Below the pieces are notes generated by a model that had not been told where the DNA came from, did no database searches, and saw only the letters and a program-made list of their open reading frames with translations. From a virus, in IMG/VR virus record IMGVR_UViG_3300014913_000007, positions 64,001-128,000 of that record: a DNA stretch of 64,000 nt, one strand, 5' to 3'. The translations under genes were made by a program, and so were the position numbers. This document shows, one piece after another, positions 11,689-28,743 of the stretch. How positions within the stretch are numbered: the first letter of the stretch is position 1; the number at the start of each line of letters is the position of its first letter.

Positions 11689-11717
11689 TTGACTTTAATA
11701 TTTCAATGTACTATAGT
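11689..11717 (+). promoter_or_regulatory. sigma70-type promoter of tRNA array 1
   Basis: TTGACT-17 nt (ending TGTAC)-TATAGT. Confidence 0.8.
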
Positions 11718-11721
11718 AAAT

Positions 11722-11757
11722 ATGTTGCAGGTAATAAATATAGGGATACTCCTATAA
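11722..11757 (+). CDS. leaderless mini-ORF MLQVINIGILL overlapping a terminator
   Basis: ATG at the 5th nt after the -10 box; lies within hairpin 11727-11766. Confidence 0.45.
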   Translation: MLQVINIGILL

Positions 11758-11773
11758 TTAGCCTGCTTTTTTT
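11727..11773 (+). terminator. terminator/attenuator hairpin in array 1 leader
   Basis: GCAGGTAAT/ATTAGCCTGC stem with inner TATAGG/CCTATA, then T7. Confidence 0.75.
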
Positions 11774-11783
11774 ATGAGTTAAT

Positions 11784-11903
11784 ATGATGGAAAAGAAACT
11801 TCAAATACATACAAATATCAATTCTAATATTATGGTGCCGTTCATGGTACCCATGTTTATTGCCCCTGCGGGGCAAGTACAACCAGTGCCATTTTGGTGC
11901 TAA
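11784..11903 (+). CDS. leader peptide of tRNA array 1, MMEKKLQIHTNINSNIMVPFMVPMFIAPAGQVQPVPFWC
   Basis: manual translation; 26 of the last 29 residues are M/F/W/V/N/P/A/Q/I, the array 1 specificities. Confidence 0.8.
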   Translation: MMEKKLQIHTNINSNIMVPFMVPMFIAPAGQVQPVPFWC

Positions 11904-11950
11904 TAAATTATTAATCAAACAATTTAGTTCGGGTAGAAGAAAGCAAATTT

Positions 11951-12025
11951 GGCGGGAAGGACGTTGGCTTCCAGTAGTGTCTCATAAGCATTATTACGCT
12001 GGTTCAATTCCAGCTTCCGCAACCA
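11951..12025 (+). tRNA. tRNA-Met(CAT), initiator-like 1:72 mismatch
   Basis: cloverleaf; loop CTCATAA; G1:A72; CCA encoded. Confidence 0.8.
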
Positions 12026-12044
12026 TTTTATTAACTTAAATTCC

Positions 12045-12103
12045 TAGGATTACCATTTTCAGTGATTAGCTTGCAACACTTTGATCTTTAAGTGGTAGTC
12101 CTA
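12045..12103 (+). other. 14-bp stem-loop between tRNA genes
   Basis: TAGGATTACCATTT pairs with AAGTGGTAGTCCTA. Confidence 0.65.
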
Positions 12104-12110
12104 CTTTTCT

Positions 12111-12185
12111 GCTCCGGTAGCTTAACTGGTAAGAGCGTTCGGTTGAAGCCCGAAAGATGGAGATCGACACCTCTCTGGAGCACCA
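12111..12185 (+). tRNA. tRNA-Phe(GAA)
   Basis: TTCGG-TTGAAGC-CCGAA anticodon arm; CCA. Confidence 0.88.
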
Positions 12186-12186
12186 T

Positions 12187-12258
12187 ACACTTCTAGTCTT
12201 GGGACAAAGGAAGCCTCCAAAACTTCTAAGCAGAGTTCGAATCTTTGGGAGTGTGCCA
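12187..12258 (+). tRNA. tRNA-Trp(CCA), short D-arm
   Basis: loop CTCCAAA; GTTCGAAT T-loop; CCA. Confidence 0.8.
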
Positions 12259-12259
12259 T

Positions 12260-12333
12260 GCTAGATTAGTTTAATGGTAGAACAGGAGTTTTACATGCTC
12301 TTAGCGGTGGTTCGATTCCATCATCTAGTACCA
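12260..12333 (+). tRNA. tRNA-Val(TAC)
   Basis: loop TTTACAT; CCA. Confidence 0.9.
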
Positions 12334-12348
12334 TATTTTTATTTTTAT

Positions 12349-12420
12349 TCCGGTGTAACTCAGTGGTAGAGTGGTCGTCTGTTAAACGACTTGTCTGTAG
12401 TTCGATCCTACACACCGGAG
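12349..12420 (+). tRNA. tRNA-Asn(GTT)
   Basis: GTCGT-CTGTTAA-ACGAC; CCA not encoded. Confidence 0.9.
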
Positions 12421-12427
12421 CTTTTAT

Positions 12428-12503
12428 TGTATCTTAGCTTAATTGGCAAAGCGTGGAACTGTTAATTCCAAAGATTTAGGTTCGAACCCTAAAGATACAG
12501 CCA
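12428..12503 (+). tRNA. tRNA-Asn(GTT), second copy
   Basis: TGGAA-CTGTTAA-TTCCA; CCA. Confidence 0.9.
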
Positions 12504-12504
12504 T

Positions 12505-12582
12505 CTGGATGTAGCTCAGCCTGGTCAGAGTGCTCGTTTTGGATACGAGTTGTCGGGGATTCGAATTCCTCCATCCAGACCA
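12505..12582 (+). tRNA. tRNA-Pro(TGG)
   Basis: CTCGT-TTTGGAT-ACGAG; CCA. Confidence 0.9.
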
Positions 12583-12592
12583 TTTTTTTTAC

Positions 12593-12668
12593 CTGGCATT
12601 GGTGTTTAACAGTAGCATGGTGGCTTTGGGAGCCAGCGGAGAAAGTGCAAATCTTTCATGCCAGACCA
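12593..12668 (+). tRNA. tRNA-Pro(TGG), second divergent copy
   Basis: loop TTTGGGA; T-loop TGCAAAT; CCA. Confidence 0.82.
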
Positions 12669-12724
12669 CTTTTTTAGAACAGTCATTCTTTACATTAAAA
12701 GCTATATAATATATACTATACTTA

Positions 12725-13174
12725 ATGGATACCAAGTACTGTGATAAATGTAAGAACGACCTGCCAGTTGATACTTTCCAAAGACGTGGGAAAAACGGAT
12801 TACAGCCTTGGTGTAAGAACTGTCAAAAAGAGTATGATAGACAACGTTACATAGATAATAAAGAATACATCTGTAAGCAAAATAAAGACGGTAGAGAGCG
12901 TAGAAGAGAAAGAAGTAGAAACGAAGTAACAAGCTATCTATTAGAGCATCCTTGTGTTGATTGCGGTGAGAAAGATATAATAGTACTCAGCTTTGATCAT
13001 GTTAGAGGAGAAAAGGAATTTAACATATCAGATGCGATTAAGGATGGTATGAAGTGGGAGAGGATAGCGAAAGAAATAAAGAAGTGTAAAGTTAGATGCT
13101 TCAACTGTCACATGAGAAAGACTGCAAAACAGCAGGGCTGGTTCAAATACAACAAATCAAATAAGAAAAAATAA
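12725..13174 (+). CDS. HNH endonuclease inserted in tRNA array 1
   Basis: CxxC pairs; CVDCG...FDHVRG...CFNCH; own promoter TTTACA-17-TATACT at 12689-12717. Confidence 0.85.
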   Translation: MDTKYCDKCKNDLPVDTFQRRGKNGLQPWCKNCQKEYDRQRYIDNKEYICKQNKDGRERRRERSRNEVTSYLLEHPCVDCGEKDIIVLSFDHVRGEKEFNISDAIKDGMKWERIAKEIKKCKVRCFNCHMRKTAKQQGWFKYNKSNKKK

Positions 13175-13187
13175 CAAACAAAATTTA

Positions 13188-13261
13188 GGGGATATAGTTT
13201 AAATGGGAAACGCCAGCCTTGCAAGCTGAGGTTCTGGGTTCGATTCCCAGTTTCTCCACCA
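13188..13261 (+). tRNA. tRNA-Ala(TGC)
   Basis: loop CTTGCAA; G3:U70; CCA. Confidence 0.9.
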
Positions 13262-13269
13262 ATTTTTAA

Positions 13270-13344
13270 CCGGGGTTAGTGAAGCGGTTATCACCTCAGA
13301 CTTTGAATCTGAGATCGAGAGTTCGAATCTCTCACCCCGATCCA
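13270..13344 (+). tRNA. tRNA-Gln(TTG)
   Basis: TCAGA-CTTTGAA-TCTGA; CCA. Confidence 0.9.
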
Positions 13345-13345
13345 C

Positions 13346-13440
13346 TTTGGCCGATCCTGTACACCACTTATAAACTGACATATGTGACGGTAATCGCTAT
13401 TCATTTGGCGATCTTTTGGCCGATCTTTTGGCCGATCTTT
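13346..13440 (+). repeat. TTTGGCCGATC direct repeats (one isolated copy plus three tandem ~12-nt units)
   Basis: direct reading between tRNA-Gln and tRNA-Ile. Confidence 0.8.
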
Positions 13441-13442
13441 AC

Positions 13443-13518
13443 GGGGGAGTAACTCAGGGGTAAGAGTGCCAGTCTGATATACTGGTGGTCGAAGGTTCAA
13501 CTCCTTCCTCCCCTACCA
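13443..13518 (+). tRNA. tRNA-Ile(GAT)
   Basis: CCAGT-CTGATAT-ACTGG; CCA. Confidence 0.92.
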
Positions 13519-13525
13519 TTTTCAA

Positions 13526-13554
13526 TTGACTTACATTTATATGTAGGTTATACT
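13526..13554 (+). promoter_or_regulatory. sigma70-type promoter
   Basis: TTGACT-17-TATACT. Confidence 0.8.
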
Positions 13555-13560
13555 TAACTA

Positions 13561-13728
13561 GGAAACACCAGTTAGAAGTTACTAGAAGCTTGGTGGTGTA
13601 CTTCTCTGGCATAGATCTATAGTAATTCTAGTTGAGCAAAATGTACGAAGCATTCACTATAGGTACCAGAGTTAGTGGTTTAGGGGGTGTTTAATGAGGC
13701 GAAGCCCTCCGACTGGTGTTTCTTTTTT
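13561..13728 (+). ncRNA. candidate ~165-nt rod-like ncRNA
   Basis: starts at the 7th nt after the -10 box; 5' GGAAACACCAGTT pairs with 3' GACTGGTGTTTCT, then a T-run; inner stems CTCTGG/CCAGAG and ATCTATAGT/ACTATAGGT. Confidence 0.7.
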
Positions 13729-13796
13729 CTTTCTTCAAGAAATCAAAAAGAAAAAAATAACAAAACAAAATTTAGGAATTATAATTTGATAGCTAT

Positions 13797-21353: not shown

Positions 21354-21382
21354 TTGACTTTTATCATTACCTGTACTATAGT
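21354..21382 (+). promoter_or_regulatory. sigma70-type promoter of tRNA array 2
   Basis: TTGACT-17 nt (ending TGTAC)-TATAGT. Confidence 0.82.
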
Positions 21383-21388
21383 GAGTAT

Positions 21389-21469
21389 ATGATTACAAGA
21401 ATGATTTCTTTATACACTTCTTTATGTACCTCTTATCTAGAGGAACTCGAATATCTATATCTAAAATAA
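21389..21469 (+). CDS. leaderless leader peptide of tRNA array 2, MITRMISLYTSLCTSYLEELEYLYLK
   Basis: ATG at predicted +1; residues 16-25 are all L/Y/E and one Cys is present; array encodes Leu x3, Cys, Tyr, Glu. Confidence 0.8.
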   Translation: MITRMISLYTSLCTSYLEELEYLYLK

Positions 21470-21480
21470 GGTAAACTTCA

Positions 21481-21549
21481 CATAAAACTAAACGCACTTC
21501 TGGCCCAGTTTTATGGGAAGGAGATAAGTGTATTTAGTTTTTGTTTTTT
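21481..21549 (+). terminator. candidate attenuator with alternative hairpins
   Basis: AAAACTAAA-C-GCACTT/AAGTGT-A-TTTAGTTTT with U-rich tail, competing with CATAAAACT/AGTTTTATG. Confidence 0.6.
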
Positions 21550-21553
21550 ATTA

Positions 21554-25864: not shown

Positions 25865-25893
25865 TTGACATACGTTAATATCTGTACTATAGT
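25865..25893 (+). promoter_or_regulatory. sigma70-type promoter of tRNA array 3
   Basis: TTGACA-17 nt (ending TGTAC)-TATAGT. Confidence 0.85.
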
Positions 25894-25899
25894 ACATTT

Positions 25900-25983
25900 A
25901 TGATGTTATCTATTTGTAACATATCTTTTGACTTTGCCGTATTCAACGGTACAGGAATCACCTCGGGAACTGGCACACATTAA
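25900..25983 (+). CDS. leaderless leader peptide of tRNA array 3, MMLSICNISFDFAVFNGTGITSGTGTH
   Basis: ATG at predicted +1; 8 of the last 11 residues are G/T; array encodes Gly and Thr. Confidence 0.8.
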   Translation: MMLSICNISFDFAVFNGTGITSGTGTH

Positions 25984-26050
25984 GTGTAAACTGTCAGGAT
26001 CCATCTAACAAATAAGTTTAAAATTTAATCTGGATACTGGCGGTACTAAT

Positions 26051-26410
26051 ATGATCGTATTTGGAGTTTGTTACATGAGTAGATCACGTAGAAAAAAACC
26101 TATCATCAGACACGGTGGTAGTGATAAGTGGTGGAGAAGGAACTACAATCGTAAACTAAGAAGAGCTAATAAGGTACTCTTACAGAAACAGAAGGAAGAT
26201 TTCCTACCTAAATTAGTTAGAGAAGTTAGTAATGTTTGGGATAGTAGTAGAGATTGTACTTTTAGATTTACTTATCTAAAGGATGGTAACTTATGTCATC
26301 TAAGTAACGTTGGATTCTGGGCTGATTTTTATGGAGTATCTATAGAAGAGTATATAGAGAAAGAAAAGAAAGAAGCTAAGGAGGAATACAACAAATGGAT
26401 GAGGAAGTAG
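26051..26410 (+). CDS. basic hypothetical protein inside tRNA operon 3 (likely start MSRSRRKKP at 26075)
   Basis: GGAG RBS precedes the second ATG; Arg/Lys-rich. Confidence 0.7.
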   Translation: MIVFGVCYMSRSRRKKPIIRHGGSDKWWRRNYNRKLRRANKVLLQKQKEDFLPKLVREVSNVWDSSRDCTFRFTYLKDGNLCHLSNVGFWADFYGVSIEEYIEKEKKEAKEEYNKWMRK

Positions 26411-26556
26411 AGTACAAGAAAACTAACAGGGAGAAGGTACAGACTCCTAAGTTAGGTATATTCTATTGCACATGTGATAGAGCTTTAGTAGGAAAGGGGA
26501 GGAAGTGTAAGTTTTGCGGGACTAGAGATCCTGGTAAAACATTTAAAAAATAATAT

Positions 26557-26629
26557 CCTGGAATGAGGTTAATGGTTAGCCTGTCTGACTTCCAATCAGA
26601 ATGCGTCAGTTCGAATCTGGCTTCCAGGA
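26557..26629 (+). tRNA. tRNA-Gly(TCC), atypical acceptor
   Basis: TCTGA-CTTCCAA-TCAGA; GTCAG-TTCGAAT-CTGGC T arm. Confidence 0.8.
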
Positions 26630-26634
26630 CTCCT

Positions 26635-26707
26635 GCTCGAATAGTATAAGTGGGCAATACACTGGTTTTGTAATCCAGAATTTTCGGATCGTGGCCGAAT
26701 TCGAGCT
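26635..26707 (+). tRNA. tRNA-Thr(TGT)
   Basis: loop TTTGTAA; acceptor GCTCGAA/TTCGAGC; atypical T-loop. Confidence 0.78.
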
Positions 26708-26748
26708 AATTATTTGACATTACTTAGTATTTATAATATAATAGTTAA

Positions 26749-28321: not shown

Positions 28322-28350
28322 TTGACATTAATTTTTATTTGTACTATGAT
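28322..28350 (+). promoter_or_regulatory. sigma70-type promoter of tRNA array 4
   Basis: TTGACA-17 nt (ending TGTAC)-TATGAT. Confidence 0.85.
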
Positions 28351-28359
28351 CTATTTGTT

Positions 28360-28446
28360 ATGTTAATATCAACTCTAAAACATATACTATTCGATATAAA
28401 GCGGTTCCATAACCGCCATAAAAGACGCTTTGCGTCTACAATATAA
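28360..28446 (+). CDS. leader peptide of tRNA array 4, MLISTLKHILFDIKRFHNRHKRRFASTI
   Basis: 13 of residues 7-23 are K/H/D/R/I and all four Ile codons are ATA; array encodes Asp, Arg x2, His, Lys and an Ile2-like tRNA. Confidence 0.8.
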   Translation: MLISTLKHILFDIKRFHNRHKRRFASTI

Positions 28447-28494
28447 TCAAACAAACAATTCAATTAGGGTAGAAGTAATTAAGTAAATAAATTT

Positions 28495-28563: not shown

Positions 28564-28570
28564 TTCTTTT

Positions 28571-28642
28571 AGGGAGATAGCTCAATGGTTGGAGCACTCG
28601 GCTCGTATCCGAATGGTTACGGGTTCAAGTCCGGCCTCCCTA
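28571..28642 (+). tRNA. degenerate tRNA with CGT anticodon on an Ile-type body (probably former tRNA-Ile2 CAT)
   Basis: loop CTCGTAT; A1-U72 and A73; mismatches in acceptor and T stems. Confidence 0.55.
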
Positions 28643-28680
28643 CTTTTTAAAGTAAACTATTCTTTACATTATACCAACTT

Positions 28681-28733
28681 AATGTATAGAATACTAGACA
28701 TTATCTGCTATACTGTCTAAGATTCTATACATT
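28681..28733. repeat. inverted repeat / hairpin inside array 4
   Basis: AATGTATAGAAT/ATTCTATACATT with inner TAGACA/TGTCTA. Confidence 0.75.
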
Positions 28734-28743
28734 ATAGCATTTT

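Follow-up and report, generated by a model that had tools for sequence, protein, structure and literature searches.

The leader region of the first tRNA array

The window analysed here, a stretch of 64,000 nucleotides, comprises bases 64001-128000 of the 153-kb IMG/VR virus record IMGVR_UViG_3300014913_000007, which has a GC content of 34% and an estimated completeness of 78%, and which represents an uncultured large phage whose DNA was obtained from a sediment metagenome. A leader region separates the divergently transcribed genes for a DUF7352 protein and ribonucleotide reductase from the first of four tRNA arrays, and contains a promoter, a hairpin followed by a U-tract (H0), a short ORF (leader ORF 1, encoding MMEKKLQIHTNINSNIMVPFMVPMFIAPAGQVQPVPFWC) and a spacer that extends to the first tRNA gene (Table 1). 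Relatives of this locus proved difficult to find in public collections: a blastn search of INPHARED returned scattered tRNA matches only, searches of IMG/VR with hairpin, promoter, spacer-motif and tRNA-Trp patterns yielded either chance matches without tRNAs or nothing, and the neighbouring DUF7352 protein as query retrieved no relatives. The best homologues of the ribonucleotide reductase exhibit 33% identity in IMG/VR and 47% in metagenomes, with no tRNAs nearby, and none of the loci fetched contains a tRNA array. Likewise, the leader 1 peptide is absent from the protein collection searched and has no homologue there. Ralstonia phage RsoM2USA, considered as a second test case, was unsuitable, its tRNAs being scattered among protein genes.

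Table 1. Positions, in window coordinates, of the features of the leader region, of array 1 and of the cassettes preceding arrays 2, 3 and 4
Feature	Position	Strand	Remarks
Array 1 promoter, TTGACT-17-TATAGT, TGTAC before the -10 element	11689-11717	+	Same layout at arrays 2, 3 and 4
Hairpin H0 (40 nt, -16.6 kcal/mol), directly followed by U7	11727-11773	+	Between promoter and ORF
Leader ORF 1	11784-11903	+	39 codons plus stop; 30/39 residues from array 1 tRNA specificities
Hairpin H1, CATGG-TAC-CCATG, followed by TTTATT	11843-11855	+	Weak 5-bp stem
Hairpin H2, TTGCCCC-TGC-GGGGCAA	11860-11876	+	
Hairpin H3, GTGCCA-TTT-TGGTGC	11886-11900	+	Ends 1 nt before the stop codon; read from the sequence
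Conserved spacer TAATCAAACAA...GGGTAGAAG...AAATTT, up to the first tRNA	11912-11950	+	Common to array 4 (28444-28493)
tRNA with anticodon CAU (Met or Ile2), odd D arm	11951-12025	+	Rfam 21.5 bits; ARAGORN 80% threshold
tRNAs Phe(GAA), Trp(CCA, 12187-12258), Val(UAC), Asn(GUU) x2, Pro(UGG) x2	12111-12668	+	
149-aa ORF splitting array 1	12725-13174	+	Own promoter 12689-12717
tRNAs Ala(UGC), Gln(UUG), Ile(GAU)	13188-13518	+	
Array 2 cassette	21354-21553	+	Promoter 21354-21382; leaderless ORF 21389-21469, MITRMISLYTSLCTSYLEELEYLYLK
Array 2 antiterminator hairpin	21476-21520	+	
Array 2 terminator hairpin, followed by U-tract GUUUUUGUUUUUU	21489-21536	+	
Array 3 cassette	25865-25983	+	Promoter 25865-25893; leaderless ORF 25900-25983, MMLSICNISFDFAVFNGTGITSGTGTH
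Array 4 cassette	28322-28493	+	Promoter 28322-28350; ORF 28360-28446, MLISTLKHILFDIKRFHNRHKRRFASTI

H0 has the appearance of an intrinsic terminator and resembles canonical terminators found elsewhere in this genome. When the cassettes are aligned, the H0 region constitutes an insertion relative to arrays 2 and 4. An 11-codon ORF (MLQVINIGILL; window 11722-11773), the ATG of which at 11722 is located 4 nt after the -10 element, overlaps both H0 and U7; if the transcript starts at the A of 11722, H0 would be blocked by a ribosome that has bound to the 5' end of the RNA, and this arrangement could be a second, promoter-proximal attenuator. This short ORF may thus be a sensor for H0; however, its match to the amino acids of array 1 (7/11) is not significant, and its two amino-acid changes in a relative described below are exactly those which compensate the structure of H0.

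Within the distal part of leader ORF 1, a first-pass annotation of this DNA had pointed out H1 and H2, both of which are indeed present, and to these we add a third hairpin, H3. The fold of positions 11825-11915 is better than that of shuffled sequences (z = -2.6). H3 is formed in several folds in which the RNA is masked by a ribosome, and the unconstrained fold pairs GUGCCAU with AUGGUAC instead. Ribosome-masked folds of 11775-11955 thus offer AUGGUAC:GUGCCAU and H3 as alternative pairings, none of them linked to a terminator. It had also been stated that no clear intrinsic terminator follows the ORF, and this agrees with both the terminator scan and the folds, which revealed no canonical terminator in the interval from the stop codon to the first tRNA (11904-11950), the scan returning just two weak matches within the ORF. 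Rfam covariance models had no match in 11784-11950, neither at E<=10 nor at gathering scores.

Arrays 1 and 4 share a common module, in which the end of the ORF carries a hairpin of 6 bp with the loop UUU, and TAATCAAACAA...GGGTAGAAG...AAATTT follows this hairpin. The arms of this hairpin differ, the counterpart of H3 in array 4 being AGACGC-TTT-GCGTCT. We consider the hairpin together with the TAATCAAACAA...GGGTAGAAG spacer to be a candidate output element of these two arrays. Assignment of the spacer motif as a boxA-like element or as a promoter of a single-subunit polymerase was rejected in view of the differing spacing between arrays and of the occurrence of only three exact copies of GGGTAGAAG in the window.

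Seven of the nine specificities of array 1 are ordinary tRNA calls, so that the count of nine hinges on two tRNAs missed by ARAGORN at default settings. tRNA-Trp(CCA) is recovered at a threshold of 90%, and the CAU tRNA is found by ARAGORN only at 80% and scores 21.5 bits in Rfam, that is, under the gathering score of 29. The latter is nonetheless a real tRNA, because two compensatory double changes (C11999A/G12013T and G12002A/C12010T) are present in the T stem of the relative. It may be a tRNA for Met or for Ile2, and in the latter case the five Met codons of leader 1 would lack a match.

Leader composition and start signals in four paralogous cassettes

Each of the four arrays is preceded by a sigma-70-type promoter of the pattern TTGAC[A/T]-17-TAT[A/G][G/A]T, with TGTAC before the -10 element, and then by an ORF of 26-39 codons which is enriched in the amino acids of its own array. 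At arrays 2, 3 and 4 this ORF is the longest of the leader region (the one of array 3 was identified separately). For leader 1, the set {M,F,W,V,N,P,A,Q,I} accounts for 30 of the 39 residues and for 26 of the last 29, which reproduces the counts given in the first-pass annotation. Among all 167,960 sets of nine amino acids, 17 reach a score of at least 30; the corresponding fraction is 0.005 if Met is left out (CAU tRNA taken as Ile2) and 0.0016 if the tRNAs are restricted to those called by ARAGORN at default settings. Moreover, when all 571 small ATG ORFs in the genome are ranked by this set, leader 1 comes first.

The codons employed are likewise conspicuous. When shares within synonymous families are taken from 85 long ORFs of the genome, CCG (0.04), CCC (0.09), GCG (0.05), GCC (0.11) and GTG (0.11), all of them listed in the first-pass annotation, which had called the variety of synonymous codons unusual, as well as GGG (0.10), turn out to contribute just 4-11% of their families. 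The distal part of the ORF (11832-11903) has a GC content of 51%, compared with 21% for the proximal part and 34% for the genome. The encoded peptide is hydrophobic. The composition of leader 1 spans both halves of array 1, which suggests that the 149-aa ORF was inserted into an array that had formerly been contiguous. The halves around this ORF comprise Met/Phe/Trp/Val/Asn/Pro and Ala/Gln/Ile, respectively; the ORF itself displays an HNH-like motif (DH...N...CxxCH), seen by eye only, and has no Pfam match.

The same correspondence is found at the other arrays. The ORF of array 2 has L, C, Y or E in 14 of 26 residues and is followed by tRNAs for Leu (three), Cys, Tyr and Glu. Its antiterminator hairpin, which starts 7 nt behind the stop codon, competes with the terminator hairpin; in ribosome-masked folds, the antiterminator is formed while the ribosome occupies codons 8-24, and the terminator stem takes its place when the ribosome is at the stop codon. 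According to these models, array 2 follows a trp-type logic, in which stalling on the YLEELEYLYL run would give read-through. In the ORF of array 3, eight of the last 11 residues are G or T, and tRNA-Gly and tRNA-Thr are located at 26557-26707, downstream of two protein genes; since the latter lie between leader and tRNAs, this cassette would control a mixed operon of protein and tRNA genes. The genes in window positions 25900-26553 encode a protein of 119 aa and a 52-aa CxxC...CxxC protein, both devoid of Pfam matches. Array 4 (Asp, Thr, Arg, His, Arg, Lys) is preceded by an ORF in which 13 of 28 residues are D, T, R, H or K, and its cassette contains two internal hairpins in addition to the spacer motif of array 1.

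In a cross-table of leaders and arrays, the matches along the diagonal amount to 30, 14, 8 and 13, and of the 24 ways to pair leaders with arrays, the true one scores best. With the four arrays pooled, 65 of 120 residues match; when the amino acids were relabelled 400,000 times, this value was never attained (maximum 60); the four-array test minus the two weak tRNAs gave 1/300,000 and 0/300,000. The arms of the hairpins within the ORFs consist of cognate codons as well, which in leader 1 are those for Pro, Ala and Val and in leader 4 those for Arg and His. Among the arm codons are some that contribute just 1-5% of their families, such as CGC and CGG, which make up 1-2% of the Arg codons. Structure alone would not predict such a split of arm codons according to array. 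The match between the codons of leader 1 and the tRNAs of its array is thus real and statistically strong, and is a property of the whole four-array system.

Leader 1 has no Shine-Dalgarno sequence and is not leaderless: rather than at +1, its ATG is located downstream of H0 and U7, at a distance of about 60 nt from the start site. Other genes of the phage with a 5'-UTR possess Shine-Dalgarno sites of the GGAG type; the sole GAG upstream of leader 1 is weak and is lost in the relative. With neither a Shine-Dalgarno sequence nor a start at +1, and with a terminator-like hairpin upstream, initiation of translation on leader 1 is doubtful. The ATGs of arrays 2 and 3 coincide exactly with the seventh nucleotide after the -10 element, that is, the expected +1, and the one of array 4 is 3 nt further on. 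Genome-wide, 8 of 57 matches to the promoter pattern have an ATG at this seventh nucleotide, about one being expected (p ~1e-5), and leaderless mRNAs are therefore routine in this phage. They look like a general mode of expression that exists beside the genes with GGAG Shine-Dalgarno sites. An ATG at the predicted +1 of a strong promoter is found, for example, in window positions 26714-26745 and at genome positions 12132, 12923, 63822 and 151382 (minus strand).

A natural variant from a second sediment metagenome

A relative is represented among the contigs of a marine-sediment run that belongs to another study, and aligns to positions 11702-12055 with 17 substitutions, corresponding to a divergence of about 5%. 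Leader ORF 1 stays open in the relative. The only indel inside it is an in-frame insertion of 6 nt behind position 11854, which adds Phe-Arg; of the codon changes, GCG to GTC (Ala29Val) and GTG to GCG (Val35Ala) both remain within the set, and CCA to CCT is synonymous. The spacer (11904-11950) is free of substitutions. ORF and spacer taken together carry 4 substitutions in 167 nt as compared with 12 in 157 nt for the flanks (Fisher p 0.04, or 0.08 if one unlisted change is placed in the ORF). In leader 4 of the relative, the ORF is devoid of indels, and a +1 insertion directly after the stop codon is accompanied by a 17-nt deletion in the spacer.

The hairpins are preserved as well. In H0, the compensatory pair G11744A/C11751T converts G-C into A-U, and through G11745A a G-U pair becomes A-U. 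H1 is retained despite the insertion, H2 loses only its loop-closing pair, and in H3 the change T11887C replaces a U-G pair by C-G and thus strengthens the stem. All of these changes fit a coding constraint and likewise the conservation of hairpins, two explanations that cannot be separated here, and at a divergence of about 5% the relative is supportive, though not decisive.

One contig joint of the relative skips positions 12410-12683, a stretch with the second tRNA for Asn and both of those for Pro, and yet the leader keeps its five Pro codons, a point against a sensor matched to its array. Another joint skips 28570-28742, comprising an odd tRNA with a CGU anticodon and its spacer. The content of the arrays seems to vary between close relatives.

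Proposed function and comparison with known attenuators

Based on the evidence described above, we suggest that leader ORF 1 acts as a ribosome-based sensor of the tRNAs of its own array and represents one of four paralogous cassettes, a reading to which we assign a probability of roughly 0.55. Scarcity of a cognate aminoacyl-tRNA, due to poor host supply or to depletion of host tRNAs, would slow the ribosome on the leader; the slowed ribosome would alter folding or occupancy of the leader RNA, and array expression would increase. Once phage tRNAs accumulate, the leader would be read fast and expression of the array would fall. Both translation of the leader and the direction of control are inferred here. 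For leader 1, the output step would not be a canonical terminator after the ORF, and may involve H3 together with the TAATCAAACAA...GGGTAGAAG spacer module; it may also be Rho-dependent or act at the level of processing, as suggested in the first-pass annotation. The multivalent sensor proposed in the first-pass annotation therefore has to be viewed in a differentiated manner: the codon match, its recurrence at four arrays, the hairpins of array 2 and the relative speak for it, and the lack of a start signal and of a switch at leader 1 speak against it. Hence, the sensor reading is supported at the level of the system, with leader 1 being the weakest of the four cases.

Leader-peptide attenuators of amino-acid operons are well known, and include ilvL (Ile/Leu/Val), thrL (Thr/Ile), trpL, hisL, leuL and pheL. 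The last of these has been described in PMC3082878. As in attenuators of the ilvL/thrL type, a short ORF rich in the monitored codons follows the promoter, and hairpins overlap those codons. Leader 1 (i) exhibits the order of promoter, ORF and tRNA (11689-11717, 11784-11903, 11951) expected for an attenuator and (ii) is enriched in the relevant codons, but differs from the classical systems in that (iii) a functional start, a terminator after the ORF and mutually exclusive antiterminator and terminator structures were not found, and a terminator-like hairpin instead precedes an ORF devoid of a Shine-Dalgarno sequence. Array 2 comes closest to the classical attenuators, having an ATG at +1, a terminator after the ORF and an antiterminator/terminator pair with U-tract; array 3 has the ATG at +1. 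In contrast to all of the classical cases, the genes controlled would be those of tRNAs rather than of biosynthetic enzymes, and up to nine specificities would be monitored by a single leader.

In mycobacteria, leaderless short ORFs encoding polycysteine serve as cysteine-responsive attenuators (bioRxiv 10.1101/834739). Arrays 2-4 are similar insofar as the sensing ORF is located at (array 4: near) the 5' end of the transcript and its codons would report the supply of aminoacyl-tRNA; the mycobacterial system differs in having a single specificity and in controlling protein genes, and leader 1, moreover, is not leaderless. Control of synthetase genes by tRNA charging is exemplified by the pheM leader (pheST) and by T-box riboswitches, of which the latter bind tRNA directly and without a ribosome. 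The cassettes share with these systems that availability or charging of tRNA would be sensed and that the decoding machinery would be controlled. Unlike in pheM or T-box systems, however, the ORF precedes tRNA genes, and no match to the T-box family is found here. That a leader ORF can work without an intrinsic terminator is illustrated by tnaC, where the site of Rho entry is masked when a ribosome stalls close to the stop codon. The conserved spacer of arrays 1 and 4 starts at the stop codon or directly behind it, but when read by eye shows no C-rich, G-poor tract resembling a rut site.

The tRNA region of phage T5 (NC_005859) is alike in that promoters, HNH genes, small ORFs and structured RNAs are located between its blocks of tRNAs. 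Those small ORFs of this region that were translated, and those gaps between promoters and tRNAs that were read, gave no match to the neighbouring tRNAs. Our literature searches returned no published account of leader peptides located ahead of tRNA genes.

Other explanations have to be weighed against the sensor reading. Leader 1 might be translated for another purpose, or might act with opposite sign. In a pyrBI-like coupling, a ribosome moving behind RNA polymerase would keep H1 and UUUAUU, or else Rho, from stopping transcription, which would amount to positive feedback, with good decoding giving more tRNA; alternatively, the product could be a small hydrophobic peptide having a role of its own. 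H1 with the subsequent TTTATT was indeed scored as terminator-like inside the ORF, the direction of control is not readable from leader 1, and the peptide is hydrophobic. Yet H1 is a weak 5-bp stem, and the geometry of array 2 fits the classical direction, in which stalling leads to antitermination. A role of the peptide as such, furthermore, leaves unexplained that four unrelated peptides each mirror their own array, and we thus regard these options as unlikely.

The missing start signals and the lack of a switch after leader 1 could also mean that the ORF is the relic of a sensor, which was displaced from +1 by the insertion of about 60 nt comprising H0 and U7 and is no longer translated or regulatory, and that the array is nowadays run by the promoter-proximal terminator, with either read-through or an antitermination factor. 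The position of the hairpin region as an insertion between promoter and ORF in the three-cassette alignment, the absence of both a Shine-Dalgarno sequence and an ATG at +1, and the preservation of H0 by a compensatory change in the relative are all in line with such a history. It is nonetheless quite improbable in our view, considering that the ORF of the relative remains open after an in-frame insertion of 6 nt with both amino-acid changes within the set, and that ORF and spacer are more conserved than their flanks, an argument which is weak at a divergence of about 5%. Less probable still is a non-coding structured leader or small stable RNA, for which the open frame and its composition would be mere by-products of GC-rich hairpins placed in an AT-rich spacer. 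The tRNA clusters of phages T4 and T5 encode stable RNAs of unknown function, several being annotated within the tRNA region of the T5 record, and the distal part of leader 1 has 51% GC, three hairpins and a z-score of -2.6; the changes in the relative keep or strengthen the hairpins, and the initiation signals are weak. However, the leader has no Rfam match even at E<=10, an open frame of 39 codons would arise by chance at 34% GC with a frequency of about 5% (as estimated from base composition), and hairpins alone do not predict the amino acids encoded by their arms, the match being array-specific in four of four cases (p<3e-6).

Why phages carry tRNA genes and how these are dosed is an old open question. 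If the sensor reading of the four cassettes is correct, the phage gauges the capacity for decoding and tunes its supply of tRNAs accordingly, attenuation of the trp/his type extends from amino-acid synthesis to the decoding machinery, and a sequence signature becomes available for the annotation of tRNA operons in uncultured phages. Leader 1 would then be an informative odd case, in which the same sensor is wired differently. One may even speculate that large phages autoregulate each block of tRNAs by a multivalent leader peptide polling the tRNAs downstream codon by codon, with a hitherto undescribed, terminator-less output module of UUU-loop hairpin and spacer at arrays 1 and 4, a generalization for which we would not quite offer even odds. 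Depletion of host tRNAs, e.g., by anticodon-nuclease defences (for background, see PMC10264068), would likewise activate such a homeostatic supply circuit.

Two further RNA elements are found in and directly after array 1. A hairpin at 12045-12103 (plus strand; -20.3 kcal/mol, z -3.3), located between the CAU tRNA and tRNA-Phe and followed by ACUUUUCU, could function as a terminator within the array, serve as a site of processing or represent a small stable RNA. Directly after tRNA-Ile, positions 13526-13732 comprise a promoter (TTGACT-17-TATACT) and then an RNA of about 165 nt, which lacks both a match to an Rfam family and a long ORF. With its 5' and 3' ends joined by a 13-bp closing stem that is followed by a U-tract (MFE -49.3, z -1.85), this RNA is a candidate small RNA of the phage.
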